A DNA stretch of 64,000 nucleotides from Bacillota bacterium. Its GTDB lineage: Bacteria; Bacillota; Clostridia; Christensenellales; SZUA-584. Below are positions 10,011-26,077 of this stretch, in pieces (the stretch's first letter is position 1; each line of letters starts with the position of its first letter). The position numbers and the translations under genes are program-made. The notes beneath the pieces are model-generated. The model was given only the letters and a program-made list of their open reading frames with translations. It ran no database searches and had not been told where the DNA came from. The stretch spans positions 135,487 to 199,486 of the forward strand of contig JAEWRI010000022.1 of the NCBI GenBank assembly GCA_023460085.1. The letters are read 5' to 3'.

Positions 10011-10027
10011 CTCATTCTCCCTTCCCG

Positions 10028-10759
10028 TCAAGCCGCGCGCGTGGCTTCGTCGGTTACGACCACGGAAGCCCCTGATATACTTGCATAGCATGCGTCCATC
10101 TCTTCCACGCTGACATAGCGGCAATTATCGCCATCCGCCCAGCGCCCGCTGTCGCAGATGTAGAACCCCGTTATCTCCCCTGTCTCGGCATCCCGAGCCG
10201 CGCTGGTAACCACAATCTGATGGTTTGCGCTGCCGTCATTGATATAATTTGCGTCGTTCCACAAGTAACCGGCGTTAACGCCCATCGTCACGCATTGACC
10301 ATTCTCCAGCGCCGCGGCGATATCCTCATATGTGCCGCCCGCCTCACCCGGATAATACGCCTGCGCGTCAATCCCGTAATGATCCAGCAGCGCGATAAGG
10401 TACTCGTCGTTGACTCCGCCCCTGGCTTCCGGCGGCAGCATGGGATCGTTATTGCACCAGCCATTGTCGATGGCCGTCTGCACAACATCGTCTTCCGTCG
10501 CGTCGATTCCCGAAAGCTGCAGAATATTGGACACGCTGACCAGCCCGCAGTCGCTCTGATACCCGTATGCGTTGTCACCCTGCTGGTAATCGAGCAGCGG
10601 CGCCACCGAGAACGGATCGCTCGTGGCGACCGATTCCCCGTTTTCATCGATAACCGGCTCGTACTGTTCCAGATCATTGGCCAGCTGCTCCGGGTGCTGT
10701 TCTCCAAACGCTTCTTCGATTCCGTCTCTCACAAGTTCAACCAGGCCCGGGATCTCCAT
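10028..10759 (-). CDS. Papain-fold (C39-like) cysteine peptidase-like protein, no signal peptide
   Basis: YQSDCGLVSVSNILQLSG (Cys71, codon 10547-10549), GSANHQIVV (His180) and FYICDSG (Asp203) give the Q..C / H / D order of C39-like peptidases. Acidic 60-aa N-terminus. AAGGAG SD. Confidence 0.6.
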   Translation of the reverse strand: MEIPGLVELVRDGIEEAFGEQHPEQLANDLEQYEPVIDENGESVATSDPFSVAPLLDYQQGDNAYGYQSDCGLVSVSNILQLSGIDATEDDVVQTAIDNGWCNNDPMLPPEARGGVNDEYLIALLDHYGIDAQAYYPGEAGGTYEDIAAALENGQCVTMGVNAGYLWNDANYINDGSANHQIVVTSAARDAETGEITGFYICDSGRWADGDNCRYVSVEEMDACYASISGASVVVTDEATRAA

Positions 10760-10815
10760 ACCGCTTCACTCCTTATGTTTGATATCGCCATTATAGCGCG
10801 TACTGCCGTCCCATT

Positions 10816-13800
10816 TTAAGACTTCTCCTTTTTTGCCGCCAAAGCCGCATTTTTAGCGGTGTATGCGTACCACCGATAATAGAACGCACGGATTTGTTTA
10901 TTGCCCGCTGCATAATACATCAATACCAGGCTTTCCATCGCGCGCACCGCAGCGGCATCCGCCGCGGCATATGCCGCGATGGCGGCATCCGCCGTTTCAT
11001 TCCAGGCGGCGATATTATCCATCGGAGTTTTGATAATCTCTGCGCCTTTGATCACCAGGTTAACGAGCCTGCACTGCGTACCGAAATCGTTCCACTCCTC
11101 AAGCACCGCGCTTTCACCGTATCGTTTGAGTACTGAAGCCAGCGCCGCGTCCTCCGGACTTCCGCTGGCAGAAAGAATATCCTGGCTGGCTTCCCGTATT
11201 TCCGTTGGAATTATCTCCGCCTTGGTGCGGTTGCAGAGCAGCACCTCCAGCGCTGTACCGCGCGCCCGCCGCAGGGTCTCACCGCTCGCCGCAGGCCGGT
11301 CATATACAAAAGGCGCGTATTTTTCCGGGGGATAATACTCTGCCATACAAAGCACCGGCGAAAGCCAATTTCCCTGATGAAACACCGCGACGCCGGTATC
11401 CAAGCGCGCAATCTCCCCAATCTGCTCCACACTCAAGCCCATCGCCTTGCCTACAGCGCGCCGGTCGTCCTCATCCGGCAGCTTGAACACCACTTTCGTA
11501 TTGGTATTGCGGATTACGGAGCGATCCATAACCGACGGAGACTGATCCGCTATGATAAAACTCTCGCCGTAGGTGCGCATCTCCGCGATGGCGTTGGTAA
11601 GTATCTCCACGGACATACCCTGAAGGTTTGCGCTTTCCATGGACTGCGCGCCGCTCACAGCTTTCAGCAGATGGTGCGCTTCCTCCAGAAGCGTAACATG
11701 GCGCAGACGGCTGTTGATCTCCTCGCAGCGTGTCACGCGATGCTCCTGCAGACGGATGATGAGCATGCCCATGATAAGCGACTTGGTCTCGGATGAGCCC
11801 AGACGGCTGATATCGATGATGGCGTTGCTGTCGAACAGCGCTTCATCCGACACCTCAGTGCGGCAGAACAGCTGTCCGCAGATACCGTTCGCCATCGACT
11901 TCACGCGCGTCACCAAAGCGCCGATATAGTTACCCTGAACCTCCGCCGAAAACTCCGTCTGTTTGAGAACACGTGGCAGCGTATCGGCCAGCGTCGCAAA
12001 CGTCGGGAAGCGCTCCGTCGGGTACCGGCAGATGCTCTCGTCCAGATCCCACCCGCATTCGCGGTACGAAAGCTCTATGGCCTCCTTCAGAAATTCCGGC
12101 ATCGCCGCGTACATCGGCCAGCTCGCGTTGAATACGCCCAGCAGCCGGTCGATATGCTCCAGCACGTGAATGCCCTTCGGGAAGGCAAACGGGTTGATGC
12201 CGAGCAGCGGAGATACCGCCTTGTTTGTGCCATACACGCGCACGTCTTCCCGTCCGCCGAATACGCGCGCATATTCGCCCTTAGCCGGTTCAATTACGAG
12301 AAACTTAATCCCGTTTTCCAGCAGGCGATTGAGCAGTACGTAGCACATATTGGATTTGCCTGATCCGGTGGTGCCCGTGATAAACATGTGTTTGCTGAGT
12401 TCATCGAGCGAAAGCTCCACCTCGAAGTCTTCTGTGTTGCCCATGTGCACGATACGGCCCACTTTGACGCCTGTCTGCACTGCGTCGTTCTTCTTGATGA
12501 TGTCCCTCGCAAACTCTGCGTGGGTATCCACCATCATGCCGGGCAGCGCCTTGCGGGGCCATGCCACGTGCACCGACATCTCCTGCGCGGTGGACAACGT
12601 GGCGGGCGTCACCTGCGGCAGCTCAAACCCGCCGCCGGAGAACGAAAACGCGGGATGCAGCATACGCTTTAAATATTCGGTCAGCGTGGAAACCGTCTGC
12701 GGTTCGTTCCATACGTTGATATATGATATGTTGGCGTCCGGTGAATACCCGGTGAGCAGCGATCGGTATATGCTTGCGCACATGCGGGCTGTGGCATTGT
12801 CCGCCGCGAGGATATACGCCGCACATTGGTACGCGCCGCCGCCCTCGCAGAGCTTGATTCTATCCAGCTGTACATCGATGGCCTTGAGGATATTGCCGAT
12901 AGCCTTGTTTTCGTAATGATACTGCACCGTAGAGCCTTTGGTCTGTGCGCTGCCTTCCGTGGTGCTGTTGGAACGTGCCGTGCTGTCGCTGGTGCCTCTG
13001 GAATCGCTCATTCCCTCCGATTCGCTCGTATCGTCGTGCGATGACGTGGTGCGGGATACGTTCGATTTTCCGCCCGCGAGCGTCTGATACGTTTTGGAAA
13101 CATTGTTGCCAAACGTGCTGACCACCAGCGGCCCAAAATTACCGATGCCCGGCAGAAACGCCGAACCCACCATGCCTGCCAGCGTTGCCGCTGTAATGAG
13201 TACTTCCGCCTTTTTGTTCTTGTCGGTATGCTCCTCTTTGGAGGTGGAATCGCTCGAAGAGGTACCGGTGCTGCGGGAACGGTTTGTGGTGGTGCCCGTA
13301 GTCAGCGACACCGACTGGGTTACCGTATCCCCCAGCGTTTTGGAGAAATTCAGCGTATCCGTCTCCGACAGCGACTGCTGAGATTTGTAGAACGGGGTGA
13401 GCTGGGTGTATAGTGTTTCATAGCCGCTCCGCATGCGCGCCAGCGTCTCATGCGCCACGGAGGACGCCAGCACCACCAATGCGAACGGCTGTCCGCGCAT
13501 GCCGTCCACCAGCTTTTCGATGCCCTGCAGATACACACCCCCCGCGTTATCCGCGCGCACGGAGGCCATACTGGAAACTGAAGCTACTGCCACCTCTCCG
13601 CTGTCAAACAGCGTATCCAGCAGCTTCTCGTTGTGCCTTGTAAATAGCTGCTCCGATTTACAGCCCGGAAAATGACCATCCACCGCGTGGCGCATCGTCT
13701 CAAACGCGTTGGTAAGCACCTGTGTATCCGTGCAGGCTGTGCCCATATACACGTCCGTCTTCACGCCATCGTGATGTACAATGAACACAGCGCTGCAGTC

Positions 13801-14097
13801 CACCGCGGAAACCGCACTGAAAACGCCGGACAGCTTGCTCAGCACATCCTCCCGGGAATCATAATTCAACGTAGAGAAATGAAGCAGGCGCACCCGGTCA
13901 CGAGGCTCCGCTGCAGCCAGCTCCTGCCGGGGCAGCGGTACTATCTGCGCATTCTCCAGTTGAGAAAGATACTGCATACGCACAAAGATATCCGCCATCC
14001 CGAGTGATTCCATCATACGCTGCTGAGATGGCGCAATGCGATTGTTGTTCTCCGTCACAGCCCTGCTCTTATACACATCGATTTCGTTGTCTTGCAT
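10816..14097 (-). CDS. HerA/FtsK-superfamily (DUF87-like) P-loop ATPase with a large novel N-terminal region and a hydrophobic segment
   Basis: Walker A GTTGSGKSN (12349-12375, verified on DNA). It is preceded by a HAS-barrel-like VKVGRIVHMGNTEDFEVELSLDEL and followed by LVIEPAKGEY. Walker B-like VTLLEEAHHLL. Hydrophobic AEVLITAATLAGMVGSAFLPGIGNFGPLVVSTFG (~13108-13209) is flanked by Ser/Thr-rich tracts. ATG 14097 follows a GGGAGGG SD (the ORF-track start 14148 overlaps the upstream gene). Confidence 0.75.
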   Translation of the reverse strand: MQDNEIDVYKSRAVTENNNRIAPSQQRMMESLGMADIFVRMQYLSQLENAQIVPLPRQELAAAEPRDRVRLLHFSTLNYDSREDVLSKLSGVFSAVSAVDCSAVFIVHHDGVKTDVYMGTACTDTQVLTNAFETMRHAVDGHFPGCKSEQLFTRHNEKLLDTLFDSGEVAVASVSSMASVRADNAGGVYLQGIEKLVDGMRGQPFALVVLASSVAHETLARMRSGYETLYTQLTPFYKSQQSLSETDTLNFSKTLGDTVTQSVSLTTGTTTNRSRSTGTSSSDSTSKEEHTDKNKKAEVLITAATLAGMVGSAFLPGIGNFGPLVVSTFGNNVSKTYQTLAGGKSNVSRTTSSHDDTSESEGMSDSRGTSDSTARSNSTTEGSAQTKGSTVQYHYENKAIGNILKAIDVQLDRIKLCEGGGAYQCAAYILAADNATARMCASIYRSLLTGYSPDANISYINVWNEPQTVSTLTEYLKRMLHPAFSFSGGGFELPQVTPATLSTAQEMSVHVAWPRKALPGMMVDTHAEFARDIIKKNDAVQTGVKVGRIVHMGNTEDFEVELSLDELSKHMFITGTTGSGKSNMCYVLLNRLLENGIKFLVIEPAKGEYARVFGGREDVRVYGTNKAVSPLLGINPFAFPKGIHVLEHIDRLLGVFNASWPMYAAMPEFLKEAIELSYRECGWDLDESICRYPTERFPTFATLADTLPRVLKQTEFSAEVQGNYIGALVTRVKSMANGICGQLFCRTEVSDEALFDSNAIIDISRLGSSETKSLIMGMLIIRLQEHRVTRCEEINSRLRHVTLLEEAHHLLKAVSGAQSMESANLQGMSVEILTNAIAEMRTYGESFIIADQSPSVMDRSVIRNTNTKVVFKLPDEDDRRAVGKAMGLSVEQIGEIARLDTGVAVFHQGNWLSPVLCMAEYYPPEKYAPFVYDRPAASGETLRRARGTALEVLLCNRTKAEIIPTEIREASQDILSASGSPEDAALASVLKRYGESAVLEEWNDFGTQCRLVNLVIKGAEIIKTPMDNIAAWNETADAAIAAYAAADAAAVRAMESLVLMYYAAGNKQIRAFYYRWYAYTAKNAALAAKKEKS

Positions 14098-14108
14098 GTT
14101 GCCCTCCC

Positions 14109-15062
14109 TTAAAGCAGGCTTTCCTGCAAATCCCAGATTTGATCGCATATCTGAAAGATATACGAGTCTTCATACCGGCTCTTGAGCTGGCCTGCGGCTT
14201 TCGCCATCTCTTCTACAACCCCGACTGCCTGTGACGGAAGATATACTTCGCTGACGTAACGGTCAAACGCCTGCAAAATGCCTTCGGCATCTGCCGCTAT
14301 CGCACAATCGGCGCAGAGCCTGAGCGGAATATCCAGCTGTTCCATGAGCGCCGAACACTTTGTCCGGTTCGCGTCCGTCCCGTCACCCACCAGGCACAAT
14401 AATATGAATAAATCCCCCGCGTCCCGCTCCGTTTCCATGGCCGACTGCAAATCGTCCTGCAAATCGCGTGGCAGCCTGGATGCATCCAATACAACAACGG
14501 ATATTCCCCGCCGATTCAAGGCTGCGCCTCGTTCCTTCAGAGATACGTCAAGGTCCTCAGGCATTCCAGCCATATCATGCAACGCTGTTGGGAATACGCT
14601 CATCCTGTCGCGGAGTTTTTTCAGTCCCTCGTACCCGTCGCCATCCAGGCGCTGTACAACCGTATCGATAAAATCATCCAGCACAGCACGGATATTCTTC
14701 ACCATTCCCCTGGGAGATTCCGGCAGGACATGACTTACCTGTGCGGAGGTCTCCATGCCGCGGCGCGCCAGCGATTCCTGCTGCGCCGCCATCACCTCGC
14801 GCAGCGTCTGAAAATCCCTTTCCCGCCCATGAAATGTAATGACAAAGGTATCGTCGTTCAGTTCGCGCACAAGCTCCGGAAGTATCCCCTGCCATTTCTG
14901 AAAACCCCGGCTGTAAGGATAAAGCCACTCATAGAAGTTTTTTCTGACAACGAAAGCGGTTAATCGGTTTTCGTTGCTCTCTACATTCATGCCGTCGATG
15001 ACGAGGCGCGTCAGCTGTCCTTCTCTCCGGAAGGGGCTTACGGTGATCTCTATCCGCTTCAT
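14109..15062 (-). CDS. Hypothetical 317-aa protein (no recognisable family)
   Basis: A long ORF in the operon frame with host-like codon usage. The start shares ATGA with the upstream stop. No motif recognised. Confidence 0.6.
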   Translation of the reverse strand: MKRIEITVSPFRREGQLTRLVIDGMNVESNENRLTAFVVRKNFYEWLYPYSRGFQKWQGILPELVRELNDDTFVITFHGRERDFQTLREVMAAQQESLARRGMETSAQVSHVLPESPRGMVKNIRAVLDDFIDTVVQRLDGDGYEGLKKLRDRMSVFPTALHDMAGMPEDLDVSLKERGAALNRRGISVVVLDASRLPRDLQDDLQSAMETERDAGDLFILLCLVGDGTDANRTKCSALMEQLDIPLRLCADCAIAADAEGILQAFDRYVSEVYLPSQAVGVVEEMAKAAGQLKSRYEDSYIFQICDQIWDLQESLL

Positions 15063-15499
15063 TTCAGTCCCGCCTTTTCAGGGATTATACTCTGGTAGAA
15101 TTGCCGGGTTCCCGGGGGCAGCATGTCCAGCAGCTGCAGCTGCAGCAATTCGCATTGCGCCGCATCCGCCGAATCCCAGGCCGCCAGACGGGAATAATAG
15201 TTGTCCATTCGCTGCGCATCTCCGGAATACAGCGGCGTATCGCTCCCTGTTTCGCTCTGCAGCCACTGGGCAGCGCTGTATGCCAGAATCCGTGTGCCGC
15301 CAAACGGTACGCCGACCATGCCGCAGGGACGATATCCGCCGTCCGGCAGCGGTTCGAAGAAAGGCAGCAGCAGCGCACGGTCTCCGCTCTTTATTACAGG
15401 GATAGGATATCCCATCACGGCAGCGGAAGGAAGCAGCAGGCATATCATGCGGGAATACCGGAGATCGTGAAGCCAGTTAAAAAACTCTTCGGTTTTCAC
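15059..15499 (-). CDS. Hypothetical 147-aa protein, paralog of 9498..10010
   Basis: GTG 15499 overlaps the upstream stop (GTGA) and follows a GGAGGT SD at 6-nt spacing. Homology to the 171-aa ORF is described there. Confidence 0.55.
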   Translation of the reverse strand: MKTEEFFNWLHDLRYSRMICLLLPSAAVMGYPIPVIKSGDRALLLPFFEPLPDGGYRPCGMVGVPFGGTRILAYSAAQWLQSETGSDTPLYSGDAQRMDNYYSRLAAWDSADAAQCELLQLQLLDMLPPGTRQFYQSIIPEKAGLK

Positions 15500-16116
15500 T
15501 TGTACACCTCCAGTATCCATCCGTTCTGCGAGATCATCGCAACCGCGTCCTTATTGAGCGATATCCATTGCCCGCCCTCCATGGAATGATCCGATACCAC
15601 AACCCCTTCTCTGTCGGCGGCAACCACTTGGACCGTGTGCAGCCCGGGGACCTCATAACCGGAATCATCCGGCTGCGCCGTCACCTGCCGCCAGAGCTGG
15701 TCGGGTACATAAGCCATCACCGATCCGTCGGCTCGCAGGCAGGCGGCGATGTTGGCCTCCGAAAAACGGGAAACCTGCACGTAGCATTCCTTTTCCAGCA
15801 GCTCCACAGCGTCCAGCATACCCGGCGCGGTATTCAAGCCTTCTGCCCACGCAAAGCCCGTCTGCTCAGTCATCACATCGCGCAGTGTCATGGATGCTGC
15901 CTCCGCCTGGCTTTCGGTAAACCGCCATGCCTCCGGCTGAATATCTGCCACGTCCTTCGGATCAAACCCTTCCATGGTCACGCGCAACACTTCCGGTTCT
16001 CCGGTTTCATTAACTCTCAGCACCTCAGAAGCAAACCGCGCTTTTTCTGAAACCTCATTTTGAATTCCGTCACGCGGCTCGAAACCCTTGCCCGGAATTT
16101 CATCAAACGGCGGCAC
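15496..16116 (-). CDS. Papain/C39-like paralog lacking the aligned nucleophile Cys (putative pseudo-peptidase)
   Basis: By eye it aligns with 10028..10759: ANIAACLRADGSVMAYVPDQLW vs EDIAAALENGQCVTMGVNAGYLW, and GLHTVQVV/VVVSDHS vs ANHQIVV/FYICDSG. Phe sits at the position aligned to Cys71, and there is no Cys in the first 112 residues. GTG 16116 follows a GGAGG SD at 8-nt spacing (ORF-track start 16125). Confidence 0.5.
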   Translation of the reverse strand: MPPFDEIPGKGFEPRDGIQNEVSEKARFASEVLRVNETGEPEVLRVTMEGFDPKDVADIQPEAWRFTESQAEAASMTLRDVMTEQTGFAWAEGLNTAPGMLDAVELLEKECYVQVSRFSEANIAACLRADGSVMAYVPDQLWRQVTAQPDDSGYEVPGLHTVQVVAADREGVVVSDHSMEGGQWISLNKDAVAMISQNGWILEVYK

Positions 16117-16825
16117 GGTCGTCACCTCCCGTCAGCATTCGCAACAGCACGGGATAGCCCGCCTTGCTTGCGAAAAGCGTTTTTCCGGATTTCAGTGTGA
16201 TCGCTTTGGTGCTTTTATCCACATGGGCGATATGCGACAGATTGACCAGATAGCTCTTATGGCAGCGGCAGAACACGCCCGATGGCAAGGTATGCTGCAC
16301 GTCGTCCAGCTTTGCGGTAAACGTCTGCGTCTGATTGTCGTTCATATGCACATGCACGATCCGGTAGTCGCTCTCAAAGTAGTCGATGTCCGCATAAGGC
16401 AGACGCAGTATCTCCGCCTTGGATTCATAGCTGAAGCAGGATTGCCCGCCTTCCATCCAAGATAAGGCTTTTCTCAGCGCATCGATGAAATTCTCGGCGC
16501 CGGCATCCCGCAGCACATAAGCAATGGGCAGCGTATAGAATGCCTGCAGCACCGTATCGTCCGATCCGTCGATATACACTATCGTGCAGTCCCGGTTATT
16601 CTCCCTCACCTTTTCTCCGATTGATAGCCCCTCGCCGTCCGCCGGGAGCACGAGCAGGTCGAGATTGTATTCCTCCTGCTCCAGCGCTTCCTCCAGTAGC
16701 CCTCTGCGCAGATAAGCCGTTATGATCGCGCGGTGATCCTGCTGAAACACCGTATCCGCGATGAGCCGCTGCAGGCTCTTGGCGGCTTCCAGCTCACGCA
16801 GGTATATGCAGATCCGTATCCTCAT
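16103..16825 (-). CDS. LytTR-family DNA-binding regulator with degenerate receiver-like N-terminal domain
   Basis: C-terminal LytTR motif (FCRCHKSYLVNLSHIAHVD). The N-terminal ~120 aa is receiver-like, but the expected phospho-acceptor region reads LDLLVLPADGEGLS with no Asp in the LLVLP stretch. No histidine kinase gene is nearby. Confidence 0.8.
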   Translation of the reverse strand: MRIRICIYLRELEAAKSLQRLIADTVFQQDHRAIITAYLRRGLLEEALEQEEYNLDLLVLPADGEGLSIGEKVRENNRDCTIVYIDGSDDTVLQAFYTLPIAYVLRDAGAENFIDALRKALSWMEGGQSCFSYESKAEILRLPYADIDYFESDYRIVHVHMNDNQTQTFTAKLDDVQHTLPSGVFCRCHKSYLVNLSHIAHVDKSTKAITLKSGKTLFASKAGYPVLLRMLTGGDDRAAV

Positions 16826-16859
16826 AATCCCTGTTTCACTTTCCTTTTGCTCTGACGAT

Positions 16860-18878
16860 TTACGCGCGCGCCCCGGACAGTATAATTTGTACCTGCTGCG
16901 GAACGTCTGATATGTTCGCTGCAGCCTTCTCCAGGCTGGCTTTCCTGCGCGTTACTTCCTCTTCACCCTTGCGTTTTTCCTCCAGAATGCTCTGGATATC
17001 CGTCTCAATCTGTTTGATATCGGCAAACGCGCACTCACCCACGGTGTCCCTGAGGTCCTTTATCTTGCCGTTGATCTGGTTGAAGATTTTATCGTTGAGC
17101 TCCATGGTGCGCGCTGAATCGTTCAGCATCGTACGGTATTCCTTCGTCACCTTGTTGGTAATCGAATTCTGCAATTTGGAGAGCGTCCATCCGATTCCCA
17201 CCACAGTGGACAGCAGCGTACCCACCACAATGGCGCCAAGGCCGATGGGTGTAAAGCATGCCGCGATGCCCAGCGCGATTCCCGTTGCCAGCTGAAGCCC
17301 CAATGTGCGGAACATTGCTTCCTTGCCCAGCACACCGCCCACCAGCGCGGTCAGTATATCCCCCGTGAAAAGCGCGTAAACCACAGAGGCAACCTTTGTG
17401 GCATCGGAGGACAGTTTCTCCGTTTCCGCGCTGTGCCGGAAATTCAGGTCCACCTTGATATCCGTGATCACGCTGGAGAGCTCCGCCGCACGCGATTCCA
17501 GTTTTTTCGCCACGCCCTGTATCCCTTCGTTCAATTTTGGCAGCAGCGTTTCCTTCGTCCACTGTATCGAGAAGGTATTGAATTTATTCTGCAGATAGCT
17601 GCTGTATTCATCAGAAATCGCTTTCGCCGTGCGCTTCAAATGCATCAGTTCCGTCGTCACAGAGCATACGTACTCGCTTTGCCACTGATTCAGATTCTTG
17701 GCGGCTTCCGTGGTCAGCGTGCTGATGACAGGCTTAACGCCCTCCAGCGACTTGTCCAGCTCAATGTTAAATTCGCTGGCGAACAGCTCCGCCTTCTTTT
17801 TGGCCAGCTCCATCTTTTCGCTGACGCTGCTGATGCGCGCCTCAAACTCGGCCAGCGGGAGATCCACCGTATTCAAGTGCTCGCGTATGGTCTGCGCGCC
17901 TTCCCTGCTGATAATCTCCATCTGCGCGGCAATGGCGCTCAGTTTCTCATCGCCCTTGCACTTTACCAGAAATTCTTCCAGGTATTTCTCCATCTTCAGG
18001 TATCCGGACTCCAGCAGGAGTTCCTTGTTTTTGTCGCGCTTCGCCTTGATTGCCTGCAGCGAGGATACGAAGAATACGCCGTTTCCGCCCAGCTTCTCCG
18101 TATATTCAGGCTGCATCAGCCGAGTGCTCTTCTTCAGGTTGCGGTTGATGGTATCGATGGCTTCTTCCACATCCGCCGCCGAAGGCGATTCATCCTTGAT
18201 GTTATCGAAGCGGGTAACGACAAATATCGGCGTATTGTACCCACGCAGGTTGATATCGGCGATAGTATCCACATCCAGCTTCGTGTAGGGCTGCACTCCG
18301 TTCAGGCAATATATGATGGCATCCGCGGAGGGCAGGTATTCCAGCGTGATGGTATCGTGGCTGTTGGGGTCGTTGAGTCCCGGGGAATCCACTACCTCTA
18401 CGCCGTCCTTCAGCATTTCCAGCGGCCAGTATACCTCCATCTTTCTGAAAGGGGACTCAATGACGTTGCCTTCCTTGTAGTTCGCCGCGCCCTGCTTGTG
18501 ATCGATGAGGCAATAGTCGCGTATCCTGTCGATGGGCACGTCAAAAGGTTCGTCGCCACCTTCCCACTTGCCCGGCACGGGGTACACCACCACACGCTTG
18601 TCCTGCGCGTATTTGATCTCCGTGATCAGCGCGGTGGCAGGCATCACCTTGGTGGGGAGTATGGGTTCGCCTAAAAACGCATTAATCATAGAGGATTTTC
18701 CGGAGCTGAACTGCCCCATGATCAGTATGCGGAAAGTCTTGTCGGCGATCTTTTCCTTGCTGGTCATGATCATCTGGATCAGATCATCCCGTGTGCCCAC
18801 CGTATCGATAATTTGTTTTTGCATATCCAGCTGCCGGTCGATGGCTTCCGCAGCATTCTGGTAAGACTTGATATTCAT
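16860..18878 (-). CDS. Bacterial dynamin-like protein (DLP-3)
   Basis: G1 GQFSSGKSS (18693-18716), G3 DSPG and G4 TRFD. Long helical stalk. Gly/Ala-rich hydrophobic hairpin near the C-terminus (LGLQLATGIALGIAACFTPIGLGAIVVGTLLSTVVGIGW). Confidence 0.85.
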   Translation of the reverse strand: MNIKSYQNAAEAIDRQLDMQKQIIDTVGTRDDLIQMIMTSKEKIADKTFRILIMGQFSSGKSSMINAFLGEPILPTKVMPATALITEIKYAQDKRVVVYPVPGKWEGGDEPFDVPIDRIRDYCLIDHKQGAANYKEGNVIESPFRKMEVYWPLEMLKDGVEVVDSPGLNDPNSHDTITLEYLPSADAIIYCLNGVQPYTKLDVDTIADINLRGYNTPIFVVTRFDNIKDESPSAADVEEAIDTINRNLKKSTRLMQPEYTEKLGGNGVFFVSSLQAIKAKRDKNKELLLESGYLKMEKYLEEFLVKCKGDEKLSAIAAQMEIISREGAQTIREHLNTVDLPLAEFEARISSVSEKMELAKKKAELFASEFNIELDKSLEGVKPVISTLTTEAAKNLNQWQSEYVCSVTTELMHLKRTAKAISDEYSSYLQNKFNTFSIQWTKETLLPKLNEGIQGVAKKLESRAAELSSVITDIKVDLNFRHSAETEKLSSDATKVASVVYALFTGDILTALVGGVLGKEAMFRTLGLQLATGIALGIAACFTPIGLGAIVVGTLLSTVVGIGWTLSKLQNSITNKVTKEYRTMLNDSARTMELNDKIFNQINGKIKDLRDTVGECAFADIKQIETDIQSILEEKRKGEEEVTRRKASLEKAAANISDVPQQVQIILSGARA

Positions 18879-18918
18879 CTTTTGCTCCTCACCGTATATT
18901 TAAATTTCGATTAAACCC

Positions 18919-20478
18919 TTATTCCTCCGCCATGAACTCGTTCAGTATCGCGTCGCACTCCATTGCCAGCACGGAATAGCGTTTAAATGCTTCTCCCATT
19001 TTTCTTTCCTCTTCGCCCTCACCGCTGCCCTTCTGGACGCTTGCGGCCAGCTGCGCATCCTTAACTGCCAGCAGCAGCGAAGCATAGATATAGTCCACAT
19101 TCTTTGAGAACGCTTCGAAGTTACTGCCCACGCATTTGACAACATACCGGCGGACTTCCGCTTCCAGCTCCTTCATTCTGTCCTTGTTGTTGCCATGCTC
19201 GACAATGGACCAAAAACCGGTGGCGACGGTAGCGCCTCCCGCCAGCATAGTTGCCGAGAAAATCGCGATGCCGTTGATGATGAAAACCGGCGCGAAAAGT
19301 ATGCTGGCTGCCAGCGCGGCAGAGGAGAACACCAACCCGGTGAACGCCATACGCTTCATCTTCTCGGGGTCGCTGCTCTTTGGCTCCGGCGCTCCGGGGC
19401 TGCCGAACGCGGATGCTTCGTAACCCGGCAATGTGTTCAGTTTCACACCAAATGCCTGCTCGACGTCCGATATCAGCGTTTTACGGTCTTCAACGATCCG
19501 TTCGCTGAGGGCACGGTTGACGCTGCCTGAAATCTTCTGCAGCTCCACCGCCATGTCGTGTTCCAGCTGCCGGTTCCACCAGTCCTTTTTCGAAGACGCC
19601 AGCGACATCTTCATTACCAGACTGTCACCTATCTCCGCTACGGCCTTCTCCCGGATCCGGTTGATCTCAGCCAGCGCTTCGTTATTTTTTTTCTTGACGC
19701 GCAGCTCGATTTCCTGCCATTGCGTTTCATTGATTTGCGCGCGCACCTTTCCGCTCTCACGGGTTTTAGCACAATCATTCAGCGCCTGCTTTGCCTGCTG
19801 CTGCAAGGCGGAAATACGGTTCTTTACCGCCGAGGCGAACCCCATGCAAAGCAGCATCTCTTTAACATCTTCCACGCTTTCGTGCGCACAGAGCATGCTG
19901 AGCAGTGCCTTGCCCATGCCCTTGTCGTCCTTGCGAATCAGCGCCAGTTCGTCGGTACCGAAGAGCGCGCTCAGCTGCGTCTTTACGTAATCCTCTGCTT
20001 CCGCCTTATCTTCGTCATTCAGCAGCTCCATTTTATTGAGGGCAATGGTGCAAGGGATACCATAGGTAATGCAAGTGCGTATAGCGGCGACATCTCTCGC
20101 GGAAAGCGGAGCGGCGGCGGACAGCAGGAACAATGCCGCGTCTACCCCCCAAAGCACACAGTCGGCGTCTCCCGGCTGTATGTTTTCATACTCCTCAATG
20201 GCGATCTCCGCGCAGGTAATCTCTGTGCCGGGAACTTCCGCTGAAAGCTTGGAATCATGCGTGGACGATACCATTGATACCGGCATTGTCGCGCTGCCCA
20301 AAATCATATTTGCCACTGTGCTTTTTCCGGAGTTGGTATCGCCCAGCACCGCAAATACTTTGCCATGCTTGCACCGGACTTCGTCGCGTTTTCCGTTGTA
20401 TCGACTCGCAATATCCCCGCTGCCAATCTCCGCGGCAAGCGACGTCAGTTTGCTGAACATATCCTCAGGTATTAACAT
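18919..20478 (-). CDS. Dynamin-like GTPase with divergent G3 motif (DLP-2)
   Basis: G1 GDTNSGKST (20320-20343) and an NKME G4-like motif. The expected DxxG position reads VDAAL. C-terminal hydrophobic hairpin (LVFSSAALAASILFAPVFIINGIAIFSATMLAGGATVATGFW). The start overlaps the DLP-1 stop (ATGTTAA). Confidence 0.7.
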   Translation of the reverse strand: MLIPEDMFSKLTSLAAEIGSGDIASRYNGKRDEVRCKHGKVFAVLGDTNSGKSTVANMILGSATMPVSMVSSTHDSKLSAEVPGTEITCAEIAIEEYENIQPGDADCVLWGVDAALFLLSAAAPLSARDVAAIRTCITYGIPCTIALNKMELLNDEDKAEAEDYVKTQLSALFGTDELALIRKDDKGMGKALLSMLCAHESVEDVKEMLLCMGFASAVKNRISALQQQAKQALNDCAKTRESGKVRAQINETQWQEIELRVKKKNNEALAEINRIREKAVAEIGDSLVMKMSLASSKKDWWNRQLEHDMAVELQKISGSVNRALSERIVEDRKTLISDVEQAFGVKLNTLPGYEASAFGSPGAPEPKSSDPEKMKRMAFTGLVFSSAALAASILFAPVFIINGIAIFSATMLAGGATVATGFWSIVEHGNNKDRMKELEAEVRRYVVKCVGSNFEAFSKNVDYIYASLLLAVKDAQLAASVQKGSGEGEEERKMGEAFKRYSVLAMECDAILNEFMAEE

Positions 20479-22343
20479 GCCAATTCTCTCCTTACTGAAA
20501 ACAGTTTTAAATTCTGTATCTGCTCTTCTATTTCCTTCGTATAACGGCCGTTATCCGCTATTTCGCGGTTCAGCCGCATCTTCTTTTCTTCATACATCTT
20601 CAGCGCGTCATTGTACAGCTGCGAATAGATAGCCATATAGTGTCTTGACATCTCTTCCAGTCGCGTGATGCTCTTATCAATGCATTGCACCGTCATAGGT
20701 ATACACTCGCCGGATATTCTATCCGAGATCGTGGGCAGCTGCAAACGTACTTGCTGTACAAAATCTGCCCGCGCCTTTTTCATAAACAGTTTGTCCTTGC
20801 CGAGGTACCCGACGATTCCCCCCACAACCGCGCCTATCGGCCCTCCCAATATCAGGCCGATGGCCGCTGCGCCCCCGCTTGTCAGCACGGTATTCTGCGT
20901 TTCTACTTTTGCGTAGCTTTCACGCACCTGCGCCAGCGAGCTCCCAATCTTCTCTTGGAGGGGTTGAGTCATCGCCGAGGACGCCGCATTCTGAAGCAGC
21001 GCCGCGTTGCCAATGCGTCCATAGCAGGTTTCCAGTTCCCGCTGCATATGATCCCCTGTCCAGTTTACCAGACCTTGCGCAGAGTCTGCCACCTGCTGGC
21101 TGTATCGATAGTACGCGGGCGTCTGATTGGCAATATCGCCTGCAAGACCGTCCGTCCGCGAGGCGTATACTTTAAAATCGGCATGGCTGCTGAACGCGGA
21201 GACACGGTATTCCACCGCCTGCAGCATATAGCTCTCCATCTCTCTCCGTGTCACTCGTTCATTTTCCTTATATACGCCGCGCATTTCCCACAGCCGGTTG
21301 CTCTCCTGTACCTTAATGTCGGCCAGCTTTTTGGCCAGCTGCGGCGGCGCGTTTTCTTCCAGCACCTTAAGGCTGGACTGAAGCGCCTGCGTCTGCTGCG
21401 CAACGCCATCCTTCATCACACCCAGCATCTGTCTCAGCAGCTCTGCCATACGGCAGCTCAGTATGAACTCCCGCTGCTCCCGCAGATGCGTAAAAAGTGC
21501 CTCCCGCAGTGCGTTCAACCTGCGCGCCCACACTTCGTCCTTGCCCGCAAGATACGCCGAGCAGGAAACCAGCAGCGGATCCCGAATTCCCAGCTTTTCC
21601 TGTATATTTTCTCGAACGTACTGCTCCAGTTCTTCCCGCTCGTCCTCCTCCACCCTGTCCATCATAGTGAGCACAAACACCGCATGGTTCATAAACCTTT
21701 CGGCGTTTTCCTTCAGAAACAGTTCAAAGCTGTATGTATAAGCCTGCGTAGCGGGAAAAAGGATGATTACAGAGTCCGCCGCATGTTCAAGCACCTGCTT
21801 GGTGCGCGTTACATGCAGCTCGGAATTCTCCTGACCGGGATTGACTCCGGGGGTATCGATAATGCACAGATTGCCCAGCGCGCCGCTGTCCGGCAGGAGC
21901 ACATCCACCCGCGCGGTGCGGTGCGCTACGGATTCACGAGTAGTTACTGTATTGAGGTTTTCCTTAAAATCACTGCCAAGTGTGATATTGCACACTTCGC
22001 AAAAGGACTGCGCCTCCTGCGCATCATTCAAGTGATACCGCTTTCCGTCGTTGAGTTCAATATGCAGTTCGGCGGTTTCATAAGGCCCGCCTTGAATGTA
22101 CGTGGGAATTGCCGTGGTTGCCATGATTCCGGTTTTCAGACAGTCATATCCGCAGAGCGCGTTGATCAGCGTGCTTTTTCCCGAGCTGAAGTCGCCAATA
22201 ACCGCCAGCTTCAGCGTGGTATCCGCATGCTTTTCCGCGATATCATTTCTTTGCTTTTTCAGTTCTGCCAGCGTGTCTGCCCGCCATGGAAACTCTGTAA
22301 AAAGGCGGCCGGCATACTGTATACTGCGCTCGATTTGATTCAT
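20472..22343 (-). CDS. Bacterial dynamin-like protein (DLP-1)
   Basis: G1 GDFSSGKST (22173-22196, verified on DNA), G3 DTPG and a G4-like TMMD. Helical stalk. Gly-rich hydrophobic segment GGAAAIGLILGGPIGAVVGGIVGYLG. Confidence 0.85.
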   Translation of the reverse strand: MNQIERSIQYAGRLFTEFPWRADTLAELKKQRNDIAEKHADTTLKLAVIGDFSSGKSTLINALCGYDCLKTGIMATTAIPTYIQGGPYETAELHIELNDGKRYHLNDAQEAQSFCEVCNITLGSDFKENLNTVTTRESVAHRTARVDVLLPDSGALGNLCIIDTPGVNPGQENSELHVTRTKQVLEHAADSVIILFPATQAYTYSFELFLKENAERFMNHAVFVLTMMDRVEEDEREELEQYVRENIQEKLGIRDPLLVSCSAYLAGKDEVWARRLNALREALFTHLREQREFILSCRMAELLRQMLGVMKDGVAQQTQALQSSLKVLEENAPPQLAKKLADIKVQESNRLWEMRGVYKENERVTRREMESYMLQAVEYRVSAFSSHADFKVYASRTDGLAGDIANQTPAYYRYSQQVADSAQGLVNWTGDHMQRELETCYGRIGNAALLQNAASSAMTQPLQEKIGSSLAQVRESYAKVETQNTVLTSGGAAAIGLILGGPIGAVVGGIVGYLGKDKLFMKKARADFVQQVRLQLPTISDRISGECIPMTVQCIDKSITRLEEMSRHYMAIYSQLYNDALKMYEEKKMRLNREIADNGRYTKEIEEQIQNLKLFSVRRELAC

Positions 22344-22401: not shown

Positions 22402-22430
22402 ATCATATAAAAGTTCTTTAACAATGTAAA
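22402..22430 (-). promoter_or_regulatory. Candidate sigma-70-type promoter of the dynamin/HerA operon
   Basis: Minus strand reads TTTACA (22430-22425), 17 nt, TATGAT (22407-22402), about 60 nt upstream of ATG 22343, inside a 448-bp AT-rich non-coding region. Confidence 0.4.
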
Positions 22431-22791: not shown

Positions 22792-23136
22792 ATGTCTGGA
22801 GAAACAAGACATGATCATACCGCAATGGTGAAGGCGGTGTGCGCAGAAATGCCGCCCGAAGAGCTTCTGTGTGACCTGGGCGATCTGTTCAAGGTTTTTG
22901 GGGACACAACGCGGGTGCGTATACTGTATTCATTGTTCGAATCGGAGATGTGCGTCTGCGCCATTGCCGAGGTGTTGGGAATGACGCAGTCCGCCATCTC
23001 CCACCAGCTGAAGGTGCTGAAGGATGCCCGCCTCGTCGATAACCGCCGCGAAGGCAAGACCATCATGTATTTTCTGGCCGACGACCACGTGCGCTCCATC
23101 ATCGGTCAGGGCTACGAGCATTTAAGGGAGGTTTGA
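22792..23136 (+). CDS. ArsR/SmtB-family metal-responsive repressor
   Basis: LFKVFGDTTRVRILYSL...CVCAIAEVLGMTQSAISHQLKVLKDARLV (HTH_5 with a CVC metal site). Confidence 0.9.
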   Translation: MSGETRHDHTAMVKAVCAEMPPEELLCDLGDLFKVFGDTTRVRILYSLFESEMCVCAIAEVLGMTQSAISHQLKVLKDARLVDNRREGKTIMYFLADDHVRSIIGQGYEHLREV

Positions 23137-23140
23137 CAAC

Positions 23141-23374
23141 ATGAAAAAGGTGCTGAGAATTGAGAATCTGGACTGCGCACAGTGCGCGGCAAAAATGGAA
23201 ACCGCTATCGCCAAGCTGGAAGGCGTCTCGTCTGCCAGCGTCAGTTTCATGACCCAGCGTATTACCATTGAAGCGGAGCCGGCCGACTGGGATGCGATGG
23301 CTGCCAAAATTGCCGCGATATGCAAGAAAACAGAACCGGACTGCCGCGTAATCTGGAACGGGAAAGCGTTATGA
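23141..23374 (+). CDS. Stand-alone heavy-metal-associated (HMA)-like domain protein
   Basis: 77 aa. IENLDCAQCAAKMETAIAKLEGV resembles the CadA N-terminal metal-binding domain. The stop overlaps the ATPase start (ATGA). Confidence 0.75.
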   Translation: MKKVLRIENLDCAQCAAKMETAIAKLEGVSSASVSFMTQRITIEAEPADWDAMAAKIAAICKKTEPDCRVIWNGKAL

Positions 23375-25221
23375 GCAGGGCGCAAAAAAAGATGCTGCTG
23401 CGCATCATCCTTTCCGCGGCGCTGCTTGCTTTGGTGTGGGTTCTCCCGTTGGAGGGCATTCCGCGGTTTCTCGCTTTCCTGGTCCCCTATGCGCTGATAG
23501 GATACGACATACTCTTCTCCGCGATACGCGGCATACTGCGCGGACAGGTATTTGACGAGAACTTCCTGATGGCACTGGCGACAGTGGGTGCGCTGGTCAT
23601 CGGCGAATACCCGGAAGCCGTTGCGGTAATGCTGTTCTACCAAATCGGCGAACTGTTTCAGCATATTGCGGTGGGCAGAAGCCGCCGTTCCATATCGGCG
23701 CTCATGGACATCCGTCCCGATAGCGCCACGGTGCTGCGCGACGGTGCAGAGCAGGTAGTACCCCCCGAAGAAGTCGCCGCAGGAGAGGTCGTCGTCATTC
23801 GCCCCGGAGAGCGCATACCACTGGACGGCGTAATACTGGAGGGTACGACCGCCGTCAATACCGCCGCGCTTACAGGGGAATCCCTGCCCGCCGACAAGGG
23901 CATCAGCGACAGCGTCGTGAGCGGTTCCGTCAATATCAGCGGTCTCATCAAGGTGCGCGTTTCCACCGAATACGCGAACAGCACGGCGGCACGCATACTG
24001 GAGCTGGTGGAGAACTCCGCCGCGAAAAAAGCGCGCGCCGAACGATTCATCACACGCTTTGCGCGCTACTACACGCCCTGCGTCGTGATCAGCGCGTTGC
24101 TGCTCGCCGTTCTGCCCCCGCTGATACTCTCGCAGGATTTCAGTGTATGGATCAACCGGGCGCTCATCTTCCTCGTCGTGTCCTGCCCCTGCGCGCTCGT
24201 GATCTCCGTCCCACTGACATTCTTCAGCGGCATCGGCGGGGCGTCCCGCGCGGGCATACTCGTAAAGGGCGCGAACGATATTGAAACACTCTCCGCCGTG
24301 CGCGTCGTCGTATTCGACAAAACCGGTACGCTGACAAAGGGTACGCTAAGCGTCGTCGCCGTTCATCCGCAGCAGGTATCGGAGGCGGAGCTTCTGGATA
24401 TCACCGCCGCCGCGGAAAGCCATTCCAACCACCCCATCGCCGATTCCATCATCCGCGCGCACGGAGGACATATCGACAAATCACGCATCGGTGAGGTAAC
24501 GGAGCTTCCGGGTCTTGGAATACAGGCCGTGATCGATGGCAATACCGTGCACGCGGGAAACGGAAAGCTGATGGCCCGGGTGGGAGCGGACTGGCATGAG
24601 TGCACCACCGCGACGGGTTCGGTGGTACATATCTCGGTAAACAACGTGTACATGGGCCACATCGTTGTGTCGGATGAGATAAAACCCGACGCGGCGCAGG
24701 CCATCGCTTCGCTGAAGCGGCTGGGCGTAGACAAAACGGTCATGCTGAGCGGCGATAACCGTAAGACAGCGGAAGCCGTAGGACAGGAACTGGGCATTGA
24801 TGAAATCCACAGCGAGCTGCTGCCGGATCAGAAGGTATCCGAAGTGGAAGCACTGCTCTCGGAGAAGCCCCCGCGCGCGCGCCTCGCATTCGTAGGCGAC
24901 GGCGTAAACGACGCACCGGTGCTTACGCGCGCCGACGTGGGCATCGCGATGGGTGCGCTGGGCAGCGACGCGGCGCTCGAAGCCGCGGACGTGGTACTGA
25001 TGGACGACAAGCTTTCCAAGCTGGCCGCGGCCATCGGACTCTCCCGCCGTACGATGCGCATCGCCCATCAGAATATCGTTTTCGCGCTGGGCGTTAAGGG
25101 CGTGGTACTTATACTGGGCGCGCTGGGTTTCGCAAACATCTGGCTGGCGGTATTCGCGGACGTAGGCGTCATGGTGCTCGCAATCGCCAATTCGTTTCGC
25201 GCATTGCGCCGCGTCGTATAG
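23371..25221 (+). CDS. cadA: Heavy-metal (Cd/Zn/Co-type) translocating P1B-type ATPase
   Basis: CPC motif (VVSCPCALVISVP), DKTGTLT phosphorylation site and GDGVNDAP hinge. ATG 23371 was chosen, because the ORF-track start 23320 lies inside the HMA gene. Confidence 0.9.
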   Translation: MSRAQKKMLLRIILSAALLALVWVLPLEGIPRFLAFLVPYALIGYDILFSAIRGILRGQVFDENFLMALATVGALVIGEYPEAVAVMLFYQIGELFQHIAVGRSRRSISALMDIRPDSATVLRDGAEQVVPPEEVAAGEVVVIRPGERIPLDGVILEGTTAVNTAALTGESLPADKGISDSVVSGSVNISGLIKVRVSTEYANSTAARILELVENSAAKKARAERFITRFARYYTPCVVISALLLAVLPPLILSQDFSVWINRALIFLVVSCPCALVISVPLTFFSGIGGASRAGILVKGANDIETLSAVRVVVFDKTGTLTKGTLSVVAVHPQQVSEAELLDITAAAESHSNHPIADSIIRAHGGHIDKSRIGEVTELPGLGIQAVIDGNTVHAGNGKLMARVGADWHECTTATGSVVHISVNNVYMGHIVVSDEIKPDAAQAIASLKRLGVDKTVMLSGDNRKTAEAVGQELGIDEIHSELLPDQKVSEVEALLSEKPPRARLAFVGDGVNDAPVLTRADVGIAMGALGSDAALEAADVVLMDDKLSKLAAAIGLSRRTMRIAHQNIVFALGVKGVVLILGALGFANIWLAVFADVGVMVLAIANSFRALRRVV

Positions 25222-25231
25222 AAACCGCCGA

Positions 25232-26077
25232 TTATCCCTCATCAAATTCTTGGAAGCCCTCGGAGCCGTCCATTGGCACGAGGGCTTCGCTGCGCTTTTC
25301 CGTTTGCATAAACTCCGTCATACAGCGCCAATAGCGCTTCGGCATGTGCGTCATGCGGCAGCGCGGATTATAGCGTTCCTTGATGCCGATGGTATCGTAA
25401 AAAAGCCGCCACAGCGCGCGAAACTCCAGTTCCTCCGCACCCGGCACAGGAGGCTCATATCCGTCAGCGCCGCAGATACGCAGCATATCGCCCTGATGCA
25501 GCAGCACCATCCGGTTCGTTCGGTCGTAAATCAGAAACCGCTCGCGCGGATACCGTGCCGCGAAGTGGCGCGCAATCATGGGCAGTATGAGGTTTTTAGG
25601 TTCTATCTGCGCTGTCAGCACGCCGCCCGAATCGGAGAAGCGCACAAACCCGGCGTAATGATCCGTTTCGCGGTTCAGCTGTGTGACCGCCACGGAAAGC
25701 GTATGAACGGTTTCGTCTGTCAGCCTGTCCATTACCGACGGCCCGTACCGGAAACCCATCCGCAGAAACTTCAGTATCAGCAGGCCCTTGTTCGGCAAGC
25801 ATGTCAGAAACGCGCGCCGCACGAAGCGCAGCGTTCTCACTCCCATACTGTCCGGAATGGCGCGCAGCACCCTGCGCGCGCGCTCCTCGTCGCTTTCAAT
25901 CGTTTTAACGCGCAGCAGCAGCGGCAGCGCGCCGTCGTCAGGCAGCACATCCGATGGCATCTCGCGCCGCTCATAGCTTTCATACACACAGCACAACAGC
26001 CCGTCGAAGCTGCCGTCATAGGCGTAGACGACAGGACCGCTTTCAATTGACGGCGCTACATCTCTCCGCTCAGGCAT
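25232..26077 (-). CDS. Probable DNA metabolism protein (TIGR03915-like partner of the DNA-repair radical SAM enzyme)
   Basis: VYAYDGSFDGLLCCVYESY N-terminus and constant pairing with the upstream radical SAM gene. ATG 26077 overlaps the upstream gene by 22 nt. Confidence 0.65.
   Translation of the reverse strand: MPERRDVAPSIESGPVVYAYDGSFDGLLCCVYESYERREMPSDVLPDDGALPLLLRVKTIESDEERARRVLRAIPDSMGVRTLRFVRRAFLTCLPNKGLLILKFLRMGFRYGPSVMDRLTDETVHTLSVAVTQLNRETDHYAGFVRFSDSGGVLTAQIEPKNLILPMIARHFAARYPRERFLIYDRTNRMVLLHQGDMLRICGADGYEPPVPGAEELEFRALWRLFYDTIGIKERYNPRCRMTHMPKRYWRCMTEFMQTEKRSEALVPMDGSEGFQEFDEG

Follow-up and report, generated by a model that had tools for sequence, protein, structure and literature searches.

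What do three dynamin-like proteins (DLPs) do side by side in one locus, and what is the role of the middle one, which lacks a core motif of the GTPase domain? Three such genes, DLP-1, DLP-2 and DLP-3, stand in tandem in a 64,000-nucleotide (nt) stretch of a Bacillota bacterium genome (GCA_023460085.1, contig JAEWRI010000022.1, positions 135,487–199,486). This whole stretch is called the window below, and coordinates are those of the window unless a related locus, labelled with an L-number (L002, L010, L012 and so on), is named. Bacterial dynamins are widespread, and few have a known job. We found that the DLPs are obligatorily linked to a HerA-type ATPase with a predicted membrane anchor and to a toxin/immunity-type gene pair, a strict linkage that gives them a concrete, testable cellular function. 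The evidence points, with about an even chance of being right, to a machine of DLPs and HerA that exports or releases small polymorphic toxins.

The DLP genes are linked to HerA and a toxin/immunity-type pair

The three genes open a cassette of ten tightly packed genes with overlapping starts and stops, all on the minus strand (about 13 kb, 9498–22343), in the order DLP-1, DLP-2, DLP-3, LytTR, g209, g153, g317, HerA-type ATPase, g243 and g170. Purifying selection acts on every gene of the cassette. DLP-1 (20472–22343, 623 amino acids (aa)), a canonical dynamin-like GTPase, is the first gene; DLP-2 (18919–20478, 519 aa) is a short DLP whose start codon overlaps the DLP-1 stop by 7 nt; and DLP-3 (16860–18878, 672 aa) is BDLP-like. 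The three tandem open reading frames (ORFs) that an earlier, sequence-only reading had placed at 16860–22343 span exactly that interval, and their Pfam and fold matches are not due to chance.

Close homologues of DLP-2 are few, with four among 5.8 billion proteins. Their contigs carry the same ten-gene block amid different flanking genes, and the block can therefore be regarded as a discrete cassette. An exhaustive search with a DLP-2 profile yielded about 170 more distant matches, including a full-length family of about 500–540 aa. A DLP-3-type gene lies directly 3' of DLP-2 in 10 of 10 genomic contexts (660–710 aa where complete), and g317 and a HerA-type ATPase also follow the DLP-2/DLP-3 pair wherever the contig is long enough.

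Because the DLP-2 alignments held no stretch conserved enough for a genome search, we anchored the search on HerA, running a HerA alignment against a single genome for each species (GTDB species representatives). Relatives of HerA were found in at least 520 stretches. Most are from Bacillota (Lachnospiraceae, Clostridium, Paenibacillus and Bacillus), with others in Fusobacteria, Brachyspira, Veillonella, Fretibacterium and a few Proteobacteria. ORFs were called and hidden Markov models (HMMs) built for the best 80 of these loci. Of the 73 loci whose sequence extends far enough upstream, 69 have DLP genes immediately before HerA. A pair of DLP genes, encoding a short (about 440 aa) and a long (about 770 aa) protein, is present in 56 loci, and three or more DLP genes in seven. 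In three two-DLP loci, both proteins read AxxxxGKST (versus GxxxxGKST), DTPG and NKxD. The window cassette is a rare three-DLP form of a widespread module composed of two DLPs, HerA, a small nuclease toxin and a SUKH-type immunity gene.

Two three-DLP cassettes (L026 and L032) have a permuted order, LytTR, DLP-2, DLP-3, g317, HerA, DLP-1 and a C39-like gene. DLP-2 and DLP-3 thus form the constant pair, since DLP-1 stands behind HerA in these permuted cassettes. In RefSeq, a Lactococcus cremoris dairy plasmid and an E. coli plasmid both encode two dynamin family proteins, one or more hypothetical genes, an ATP-binding protein, an HNH-type nuclease and a small gene, the last annotated as SMI1/KNR4 on the E. 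coli plasmid and as hypothetical on the Lactococcus plasmid. A scan of 2.9 million viral contigs gave seven matches, which say little on function either way, and the occurrence of the module in 1 of 5426 E. coli genomes does not help to decide function. Several related loci have distinctive neighbours: in L103 (1981–6197) the cassette lies beside MobL, Toprim and a type IV secretion system coupling protein; in L007 (5825–8187) a shortened DLP-1 of 393 aa has an IS66 element immediately upstream, next to vWA/TerY genes; and in L010 (17228–18880) a Pkinase-NACHT gene lies directly downstream.

The HerA-type ATPase (10816–14148, 1110 aa) belongs to the most strongly conserved part of the cassette. 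It comprises a conserved N-terminal domain, a hydrophobic hairpin (aa 314–346, 13111–13209), Ser/Thr-rich linkers beside the hairpin, and an ATPase core with Walker A (GTTGSGKS, 12352–12375) and Walker B (VTLLEEAHHL, 11668–11697) motifs. The protein matches Pfam DUF87/HerA (5.7e-14), NCBIfam ser_rich_anae_1 (5.7e-28) and CedD (4e-24), and HerA-type helicases in PDB, some of which we take to be the Sir2-HerA and DUF4297-HerA defence complexes. The core also matches the PADLOC HerA and mad8 models (1e-17 to 1e-19), the PADLOC HerA matches being partial. Judged from the sequence, the ATPase is predicted to be membrane-anchored through the hydrophobic hairpin.

Upstream of HerA lies g317 (14109–15062), a core accessory protein with orthologues in L007 and L010. 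Over its first 130 aa or so it shares homology with the domain that begins the long DLP of two-DLP cassettes (BLASTP against the long DLP of Bacillus sp. CHD6a, E 7e-6, aa 1–162), and a long DLP bearing such a domain is encoded at 7027–9333 of L037. The alignment indicates a domain fission or fusion between the two cassette types.

Polymorphic toxin-type genes follow HerA

In 66 of 79 loci the start of the next ORF coincides with or precedes the HerA stop. In a Pfam scan of 77 such ORFs (g243 and 76 others from related loci), where one ORF may match several families, 37 matched Colicin-DNase, 36 WHH, 14 LHH, six Endonuclea_NS_2 and three Peptidase_C39_2, with one match each to a papain-fold glutamine deamidase and to NERD. 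At least six toxin families thus occupy the same position after HerA across loci; the window itself carries a single pair. Second ORFs (70, that is, 69 from related loci plus g170) matched SMI1_KNR4/SUKH in 32 cases, DUF6985 in 13, DUF7832 in six, and PoNi and SUKH-4 in one each. Families of the Colicin-DNase/WHH/LHH type and of the SUKH type are the toxin and immunity families, respectively, of polymorphic toxin systems (PMC3113570, PMC3482391).

The toxins of related loci are small (about 170–330 aa) and have short, variable and disordered N-terminal leaders. A leader motif, [DE]x[DN][KRQE]P[ILV] ('ELDKPI'), occurs in 16 of 79 leaders, compared with 1.6 expected, and none of 300 shuffles reached 16; the motif is not universal. 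It is located about 30–60 aa from the N-terminus of the first ORF after HerA (L015–L091), is absent from the immunity ORFs, and could be a recognition or cleavage signal. A looser version, DLEQYEPVI, is present at aa 29–37 of g243.

In the window, the slot held by nuclease toxins in related cassettes is taken by g243 (10028–10759, 243 aa), a papain-fold protein and candidate toxin, and the slot of the SUKH-type immunity genes by g170 (9498–10010, 170 aa), a candidate immunity protein always found directly 3' of g243. Within the g243 family alignment Q60, C71, H180 and D203 are invariant. The AlphaFold model of g243 (mean predicted local distance difference test (pLDDT) score 87.6) has a disordered, acidic leader of about 40 aa. 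The Pfam Peptidase_C39_2 match is 0.006 in the window and stronger in homologues, and Foldseek retrieved the double-glycine C39 protease 6MPZ (5e-5), a phytochelatin-synthase-like enzyme, PCAT1 and ComA, as well as 8SSM, the papain-like contact-dependent inhibition (CDI) toxin CdiA-CT of Citrobacter rodentium (7e-4). The g243–g170 pair occurs twice in tandem in L012, the copies being 71% and 81% identical (81% for g170), and g170 is internally duplicated in L010. We regard g243–g170 as a candidate toxin–immunity pair, a better reading than that of a C39-type processing peptidase.

DLP-1 and DLP-3 have canonical G domains

Judged by their motifs, DLP-1 and DLP-3 have dynamin-type G domains with a complete set of G1–G4. 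DLP-1 carries G1 GDFSSGKST (22170–22196), G3 DTPG (21846–21857) and G4 TMMD (21657–21668), matches Pfam Dynamin_N above threshold (4e-21), and keeps IDTPGVN in nine of nine full-length orthologues checked. Its nearest solved structure by sequence is the Campylobacter Cj-DLP (chain 5OWV_C, 7e-11), with a match that reaches aa 325. DLP-3 carries G1 GQFSSGKSS (18690–18716), G3 DSPG (D164-S-P-G167, 18378–18389) and G4 TRFD (18204–18215), and also matches Dynamin_N above threshold (2.7e-26). The G3 of every DLP-3 orthologue checked reads D[ST]xG, mostly DSPG. The match of DLP-3 to Nostoc BDLP (2J68, 8.5e-29) covers aa 36–479, that is, the G domain and much of the stalk. Both G3 motifs are those that the sequence-only reading had reported, and the three P-loops also read as it gave them, its ranges spanning eight of the nine codons of each G1.

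Hydropathy places a hydrophobic, Gly/Ala-rich segment in the C-terminal third of each of the three proteins, in agreement with the earlier suggestion that each has a membrane paddle. The predicted paddle of DLP-1 is a glycine zipper at aa 485–515 (20799–20891), that of DLP-2 lies at aa 376–422 (19213–19353) and that of DLP-3 at aa 495–569 (17172–17396). The helical stalk of DLP-3 is indicated by the 2J68 match up to aa 479, and that of DLP-2 by its AlphaFold model.

DLP-2 belongs to a family of short DLPs without G3

DLP-2 carries G1 GDTNSGKST (20317–20343) and G4 NKME (20026–20037), and in place of G3 it reads E91-I-A-I94 (20197–20208), in which both the Asp and the Gly are absent. This equivalence comes from an hhalign comparison of the DLP-2 family (26 members) with the DLP-3 profile (eight orthologues), which places E91 on D164 and I94 on G167 (probability 99%, E 7.5e-18), and it agrees with the AlphaFold model, where strand beta-3 ends at residue 92. 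A HMMER alignment with Era puts the Era DTPG two residues later, on A93–E96, again at a site without Asp or Gly. The sequence-only reading was thus right that DLP-2 has no DxxG, and neither profile alignment brought to light one that the eye had missed; the site it proposed, VDAAL (20131–20145), is a different element, which lies at the start of strand beta-4, opposite ADAII of DLP-3 in the alignment and 20 residues past the G3 equivalent. A cryptic G3 at residues 81–84, which read DIPG in close relatives and EVPG in the window (20227–20238), was considered and rejected because these residues fall in the beta2–beta3 turn of the model, 10 residues before the DxxG column, and are unconserved in the family.

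The absence of DxxG extends to every DLP-2 orthologue checked. Besides the initiator Met, only six positions are invariant in the 26-member family, namely the P-loop residues G46, G51 and K52 together with N57, E91 and D113. The family reads hhhE-[IL]-P-x at the place of G3, the Thr column aligned to the G2 Thr of DLP-3 is unconserved, and G4, [NST]KxD in the majority of members, reads NKME in the clade of the window. DLP-2 therefore belongs to a separate family of short DLPs of about 510 aa, in which P-loop, stalk and paddle are kept and G3 and the G2 Thr are lost.

By sequence, DLP-2 reaches 23.8 bits against Pfam Dynamin_N, under the cut-off of 27 and in the P-loop region only, and a profile search of PDB matched only Der and Era (1.6e-4). 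Its G domain is minimal and Era/Der-like (aa 38–200, about 160 aa). The AlphaFold model (pLDDT 74.6) adds long stalk helices at 203–343 and 431–516, with the low-confidence paddle between the two stalk halves, and Foldseek matched most of its length to bacterial DLPs (1e-7 to 1e-6), the best matches being BDLP 2J69 (1e-7), IniA and Cj-DLP. DLP-2 is thus DLP-like by its modelled fold and not a canonical DLP member by its motifs.

The ratio of non-synonymous to synonymous substitution rates (dN/dS) of DLP-2 is about 0.07–0.08, and the non-synonymous proportion, pN, is far below its synonymous counterpart, pS; dS is saturated, so that the ratios are rough. A gene with pN this far below pS is being maintained and is not decaying, which rules out a decaying pseudogene. 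Since the loss of G2 and G3 is family-wide and accompanied by purifying selection, DLP-2 is probably a specialised, hydrolysis-impaired subunit, maintained with impaired switch motifs, as the sequence-only reading had suggested. It may bind GTP without hydrolysing it.

The three proteins are also old with respect to one another. DLP-1 and DLP-3 share 24% identity, in the G domain only, and DLP-2 matches either of them only around the P-loop. Their counterparts in L010 are 33% (DLP-1), 27% (DLP-2) and 47% (DLP-3) identical. Recent tandem duplication without specialisation is ruled out by paralogue identities of 24% or less and by separate, one-to-one orthologues of each DLP in distant loci. The three genes are anciently diverged paralogues with fixed roles.

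A possible toxin export machine and its alternatives

Gene neighbourhood and domain identity suggest how the parts could work together. A HerA hexamer, anchored by its hairpin, would recognise a leader-bearing toxin and power its passage. With their paddles inserted in the membrane, the DLPs would spend GTP on deforming, tethering or fusing it at the export site, and the toxin would leave through a pore or a vesicle, a route also compatible with diderm hosts. DLP-2 would bind nucleotide without hydrolysing it alone, and a putative pairing of its G domain with that of DLP-3 would set the assembly or the GTPase cycle of DLP-3. The immunity protein would shield the producer and its kin. The wider proposal, that the DLP–HerA module is a previously unrecognised export or delivery pathway for leader-bearing polymorphic toxins in >500 species (mostly Bacillota, also Fusobacteria, Spirochaetes, Negativicutes and some Proteobacteria), with DLPs doing the membrane work, HerA as the cargo motor and a pseudo-GTPase regulatory subunit in the window form, is put forward tentatively, as plausible rather than probable.

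Several observations weigh against toxin export, beginning with the nature of its foundation, which is gene neighbourhood and domain identity. The module occurs in diderms (the E. coli plasmid, Veillonella, Fusobacterium and Brachyspira) without a visible outer-membrane component. Abi, WYL or NACHT genes adjoin some cassettes, the ATPase is nearest to the HerA proteins of anti-phage systems, and DLPs are known in phage defence. Pfam scans of g170 returned no match to immunity families or to other domain families. Almost all three-DLP cassettes examined have the same papain-like gene in place of varied toxins, and in one subclade (L009) this gene lies upstream of DLP-1; on account of this near-constancy and displaced position, the papain-like gene could be a part of the machine.

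The main rival, which we rate as rather unlikely, is anti-phage defence or abortive infection: a HerA hexamer would sense or assemble on invading DNA and activate a small nuclease or protease effector otherwise restrained by its small partner, while the DLPs, in the way proposed for DynA and Eleos, would seal the membrane or remodel it during infection. The matches of the ATPase core to the PADLOC HerA and mad8 models and to HerA proteins in PDB, the weak Eleos LeoA/LeoBC matches of DLP-1 and DLP-3, the Abi, WYL, TerY/vWA or Pkinase-NACHT neighbours of some loci and the plasmid location of some copies would all fit. However, effectors and partners come from the families that make up polymorphic toxin–immunity pairs (Colicin-DNase, WHH and LHH with SUKH and PoNi), and the pairs occur in tandem arrays, an arrangement typical for interbacterial toxins but not for defence effectors. 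Moreover, the PADLOC system models fit neither cassette type, and HerA here is predicted to be membrane-anchored. We consider it improbable, more so than defence, that the cassette serves bacteriocin-like maturation and export, with g243 as the C39-type leader peptidase of a DLP and HerA export machine, acting on a small substrate, and LytTR as a quorum-type regulator. The cassette does include a gene for LytTR, a kind of regulator typically found in bacteriocin loci; structurally, g243 comes closest to the double-glycine protease 6MPZ, and it also gives a Peptidase_C39_2 signal; and nearly every three-DLP cassette examined has a member of the g243 family, which in L009 lies upstream of DLP-1. 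Yet g243 sits in the exact slot of the two-DLP nuclease toxins, always with one small gene next to it, the pair has been duplicated in tandem and has diverged (71% and 81% identity), and g243 also resembles the CDI toxin 8SSM, for which a dedicated immunity protein exists. The cassette showed no gene for a double-glycine peptide.

That the DLPs are housekeeping proteins of membrane repair or division, like DynA or IniA/IniC, standing beside unrelated genes, with DLP-2 a decaying extra copy, is very improbable, and the conservation seen across loci has largely refuted it. In its favour, DLP-1 and DLP-3 are ordinary members of the bacterial DLPs, whose genes frequently stand in tandem (PMC6104087), but the ten-gene block moves as a unit among genomic neighbourhoods, DLPs and HerA are linked in 69 of 73 loci, the starts and stops of the operon overlap, and DLP-2 is under purifying selection with its G3-less state shared family-wide. 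The least probable explanation, and a very remote one, is a leoABC/Eleos-type locus with three specialised Leo components. The sequence-only reading had taken triads to be characteristic of leoABC loci, and this failed, because LeoABC encodes a pair: the DLP LeoA and a second DLP split into LeoC, with the P-loop, switch 1 and membrane anchor, and LeoB, with DxxG and the remainder (PMC4159319). PADLOC Eleos LeoA/LeoBC models do match DLP-1 and DLP-3 weakly (E 1e-11 to 1e-22, with partial coverage of DLP-1). Against the NCBIfam LeoA/HP0731 model (NF041922, cut-off 325 bits), however, DLP-1 scored 15 bits and DLP-3 29, and DLP-2 had no match; the cassette contains no split GTPase, each DLP having its own P-loop, stalk and paddle; and HerA and a toxin pair are foreign to Leo/Eleos loci. 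The missed family threshold and the lack of a split DLP rule out membership in LeoABC/Eleos. What stands of the sequence-only reading is thus the impaired DLP-2, not the leoABC assignment, and the operon with HerA and a toxin/immunity-like pair had escaped it.

If toxin export is the true function, the module would provide a new path for antagonism between bacteria, one that is common among gut Bacillota. If the module is instead a defence system it would still be new, combining DLPs with HerA. The G3-less DLP-2 family would in addition provide a natural dynamin-type pseudo-GTPase that could clarify the regulation of heterotypic DLPs, also for mitofusins, Mgm1 and LeoA/LeoBC.

Other cassette genes and surroundings

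The gene after DLP-3 encodes a LytTR-domain DNA-binding protein (16103–16825, 240 aa; Pfam LytTR 2.6e-19, with weak AgrA, BtsR and LytR matches), which is a probable regulator of the cassette. Only some cassette subtypes have a LytTR gene, with orthologues in L002, L004, L007, L013 and L103. The N-terminal half of the protein looks receiver-like by eye and reads LLVLPADG at the acceptor-Asp position, and the protein may be a phosphorylation-independent pseudo-receiver. Two proteins of unassigned function follow. The gene for g209 (15496–16125) co-occurs with the LytTR gene and has orthologues in LytTR-containing cassettes, and g209 matched no family in scans of domain and profile libraries; g153 (15059–15520) has a single hydrophobic segment (aa 24–44) and orthologues in related cassettes, and matched no family in scans of domain libraries. 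A consensus scan found a weak promoter-like site on the minus strand about 60 nt upstream of the DLP-1 start (TTTACA-17-TATGAT, 22402–22430; 10 of 12 consensus matches).

Directly upstream of the cassette and on the opposite strand are genes for an ArsR-family regulator (22792–23136), a small HMA-domain protein and a P-type heavy-metal ATPase (23320–25221); this group (22792–25221) is unrelated to the cassette and does not stand beside it in relatives. Further on, at 25232–27423, a DUF4130 protein adjoins a radical SAM/HhH protein, with overlapping ORFs. The last third of the window (42500–64000) is a siphovirus-type prophage with a large terminase (57654–58886), an SPP1-type portal (56309–57643), Dit (48540–49394), a Gp37-like tail protein (46653–48536) and an NlpC/P60 and PG_binding lysin (43816–44574). 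Its guanine–cytosine (GC) content is 31–38%, compared with 52–60% in the first 40 kb of the window, and this mismatch suggests either that a foreign phage was acquired recently or that the metagenome scaffold is a chimera.

Comparison with known systems

DLPs, HerA ATPases and polymorphic toxins are individually well known, and we found no description of this gene combination. A full-text literature search, which left subscription journals mostly uncovered and so provides absence of evidence only, returned no account of an association of DLPs with HerA and toxin–immunity genes, of a family of short DLPs without G3 or of a conserved triad of DLPs.

Among characterised DLPs, Nostoc punctiforme BDLP1 (2J68, 2J69 and 2W6D) has a G domain, a helical stalk and a paddle near its tip, an architecture also predicted for all three DLPs of the cassette. 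Compared with BDLP1 and with bacterial DLPs generally, the cassette has three genes in place of one or two, and ties them to a HerA ATPase and a toxin-like pair; and the G domain of DLP-2 is minimal, at about 160 aa, Era/Der-like and without G2 or G3. The Campylobacter jejuni DLP1/DLP2 pair (5OWV; PMC6104087) consists of non-identical DLP partners encoded in one operon, as here, and such partners suggest a hetero-oligomer that tethers membranes. The cassette differs in having a third, catalytically degenerate partner, and in the constancy of DLP-2/DLP-3 next to a mobile DLP-1. The DLPs of enterotoxigenic E. coli LeoABC and of Eleos are tied to vesicle release of toxin and to phage defence, respectively; unlike these, the cassette has HerA and toxin–immunity genes, lacks a split GTPase and misses the family thresholds.

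The remaining likenesses concern the ATPase and its cargo. Type VIIb secretion, like the cassette, places a membrane ATPase of the FtsK-HerA superfamily beside polymorphic nuclease toxins and SUKH-type immunity genes, mostly in Bacillota (PMC3113570, PMC3482391). However, EssC is a multi-domain protein with several FtsK domains, whereas the cassette ATPase has a single HerA-clade domain; DLPs stand in place of the EsaA/EssA/EssB membrane components; and the toxins are small, with short disordered leaders. Pfam found no WXG100 or LXG domain in the cassette proteins or in 76 downstream ORFs of related loci. Sir2-HerA and DUF4297-HerA, among the closest solved ATPase cores, also pair a HerA-type ATPase with a small enzymatic effector, but neither a Sir2 nor a DUF4297 domain was found in the cassette by Pfam and PADLOC scans. 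In contrast to those systems, the cassette ATPase has about double the length and carries an additional N-terminal domain together with Ser/Thr-rich linkers and a hydrophobic hairpin, its effectors belong to polymorphic toxin families with immunity genes, and DLPs are its obligatory neighbours.

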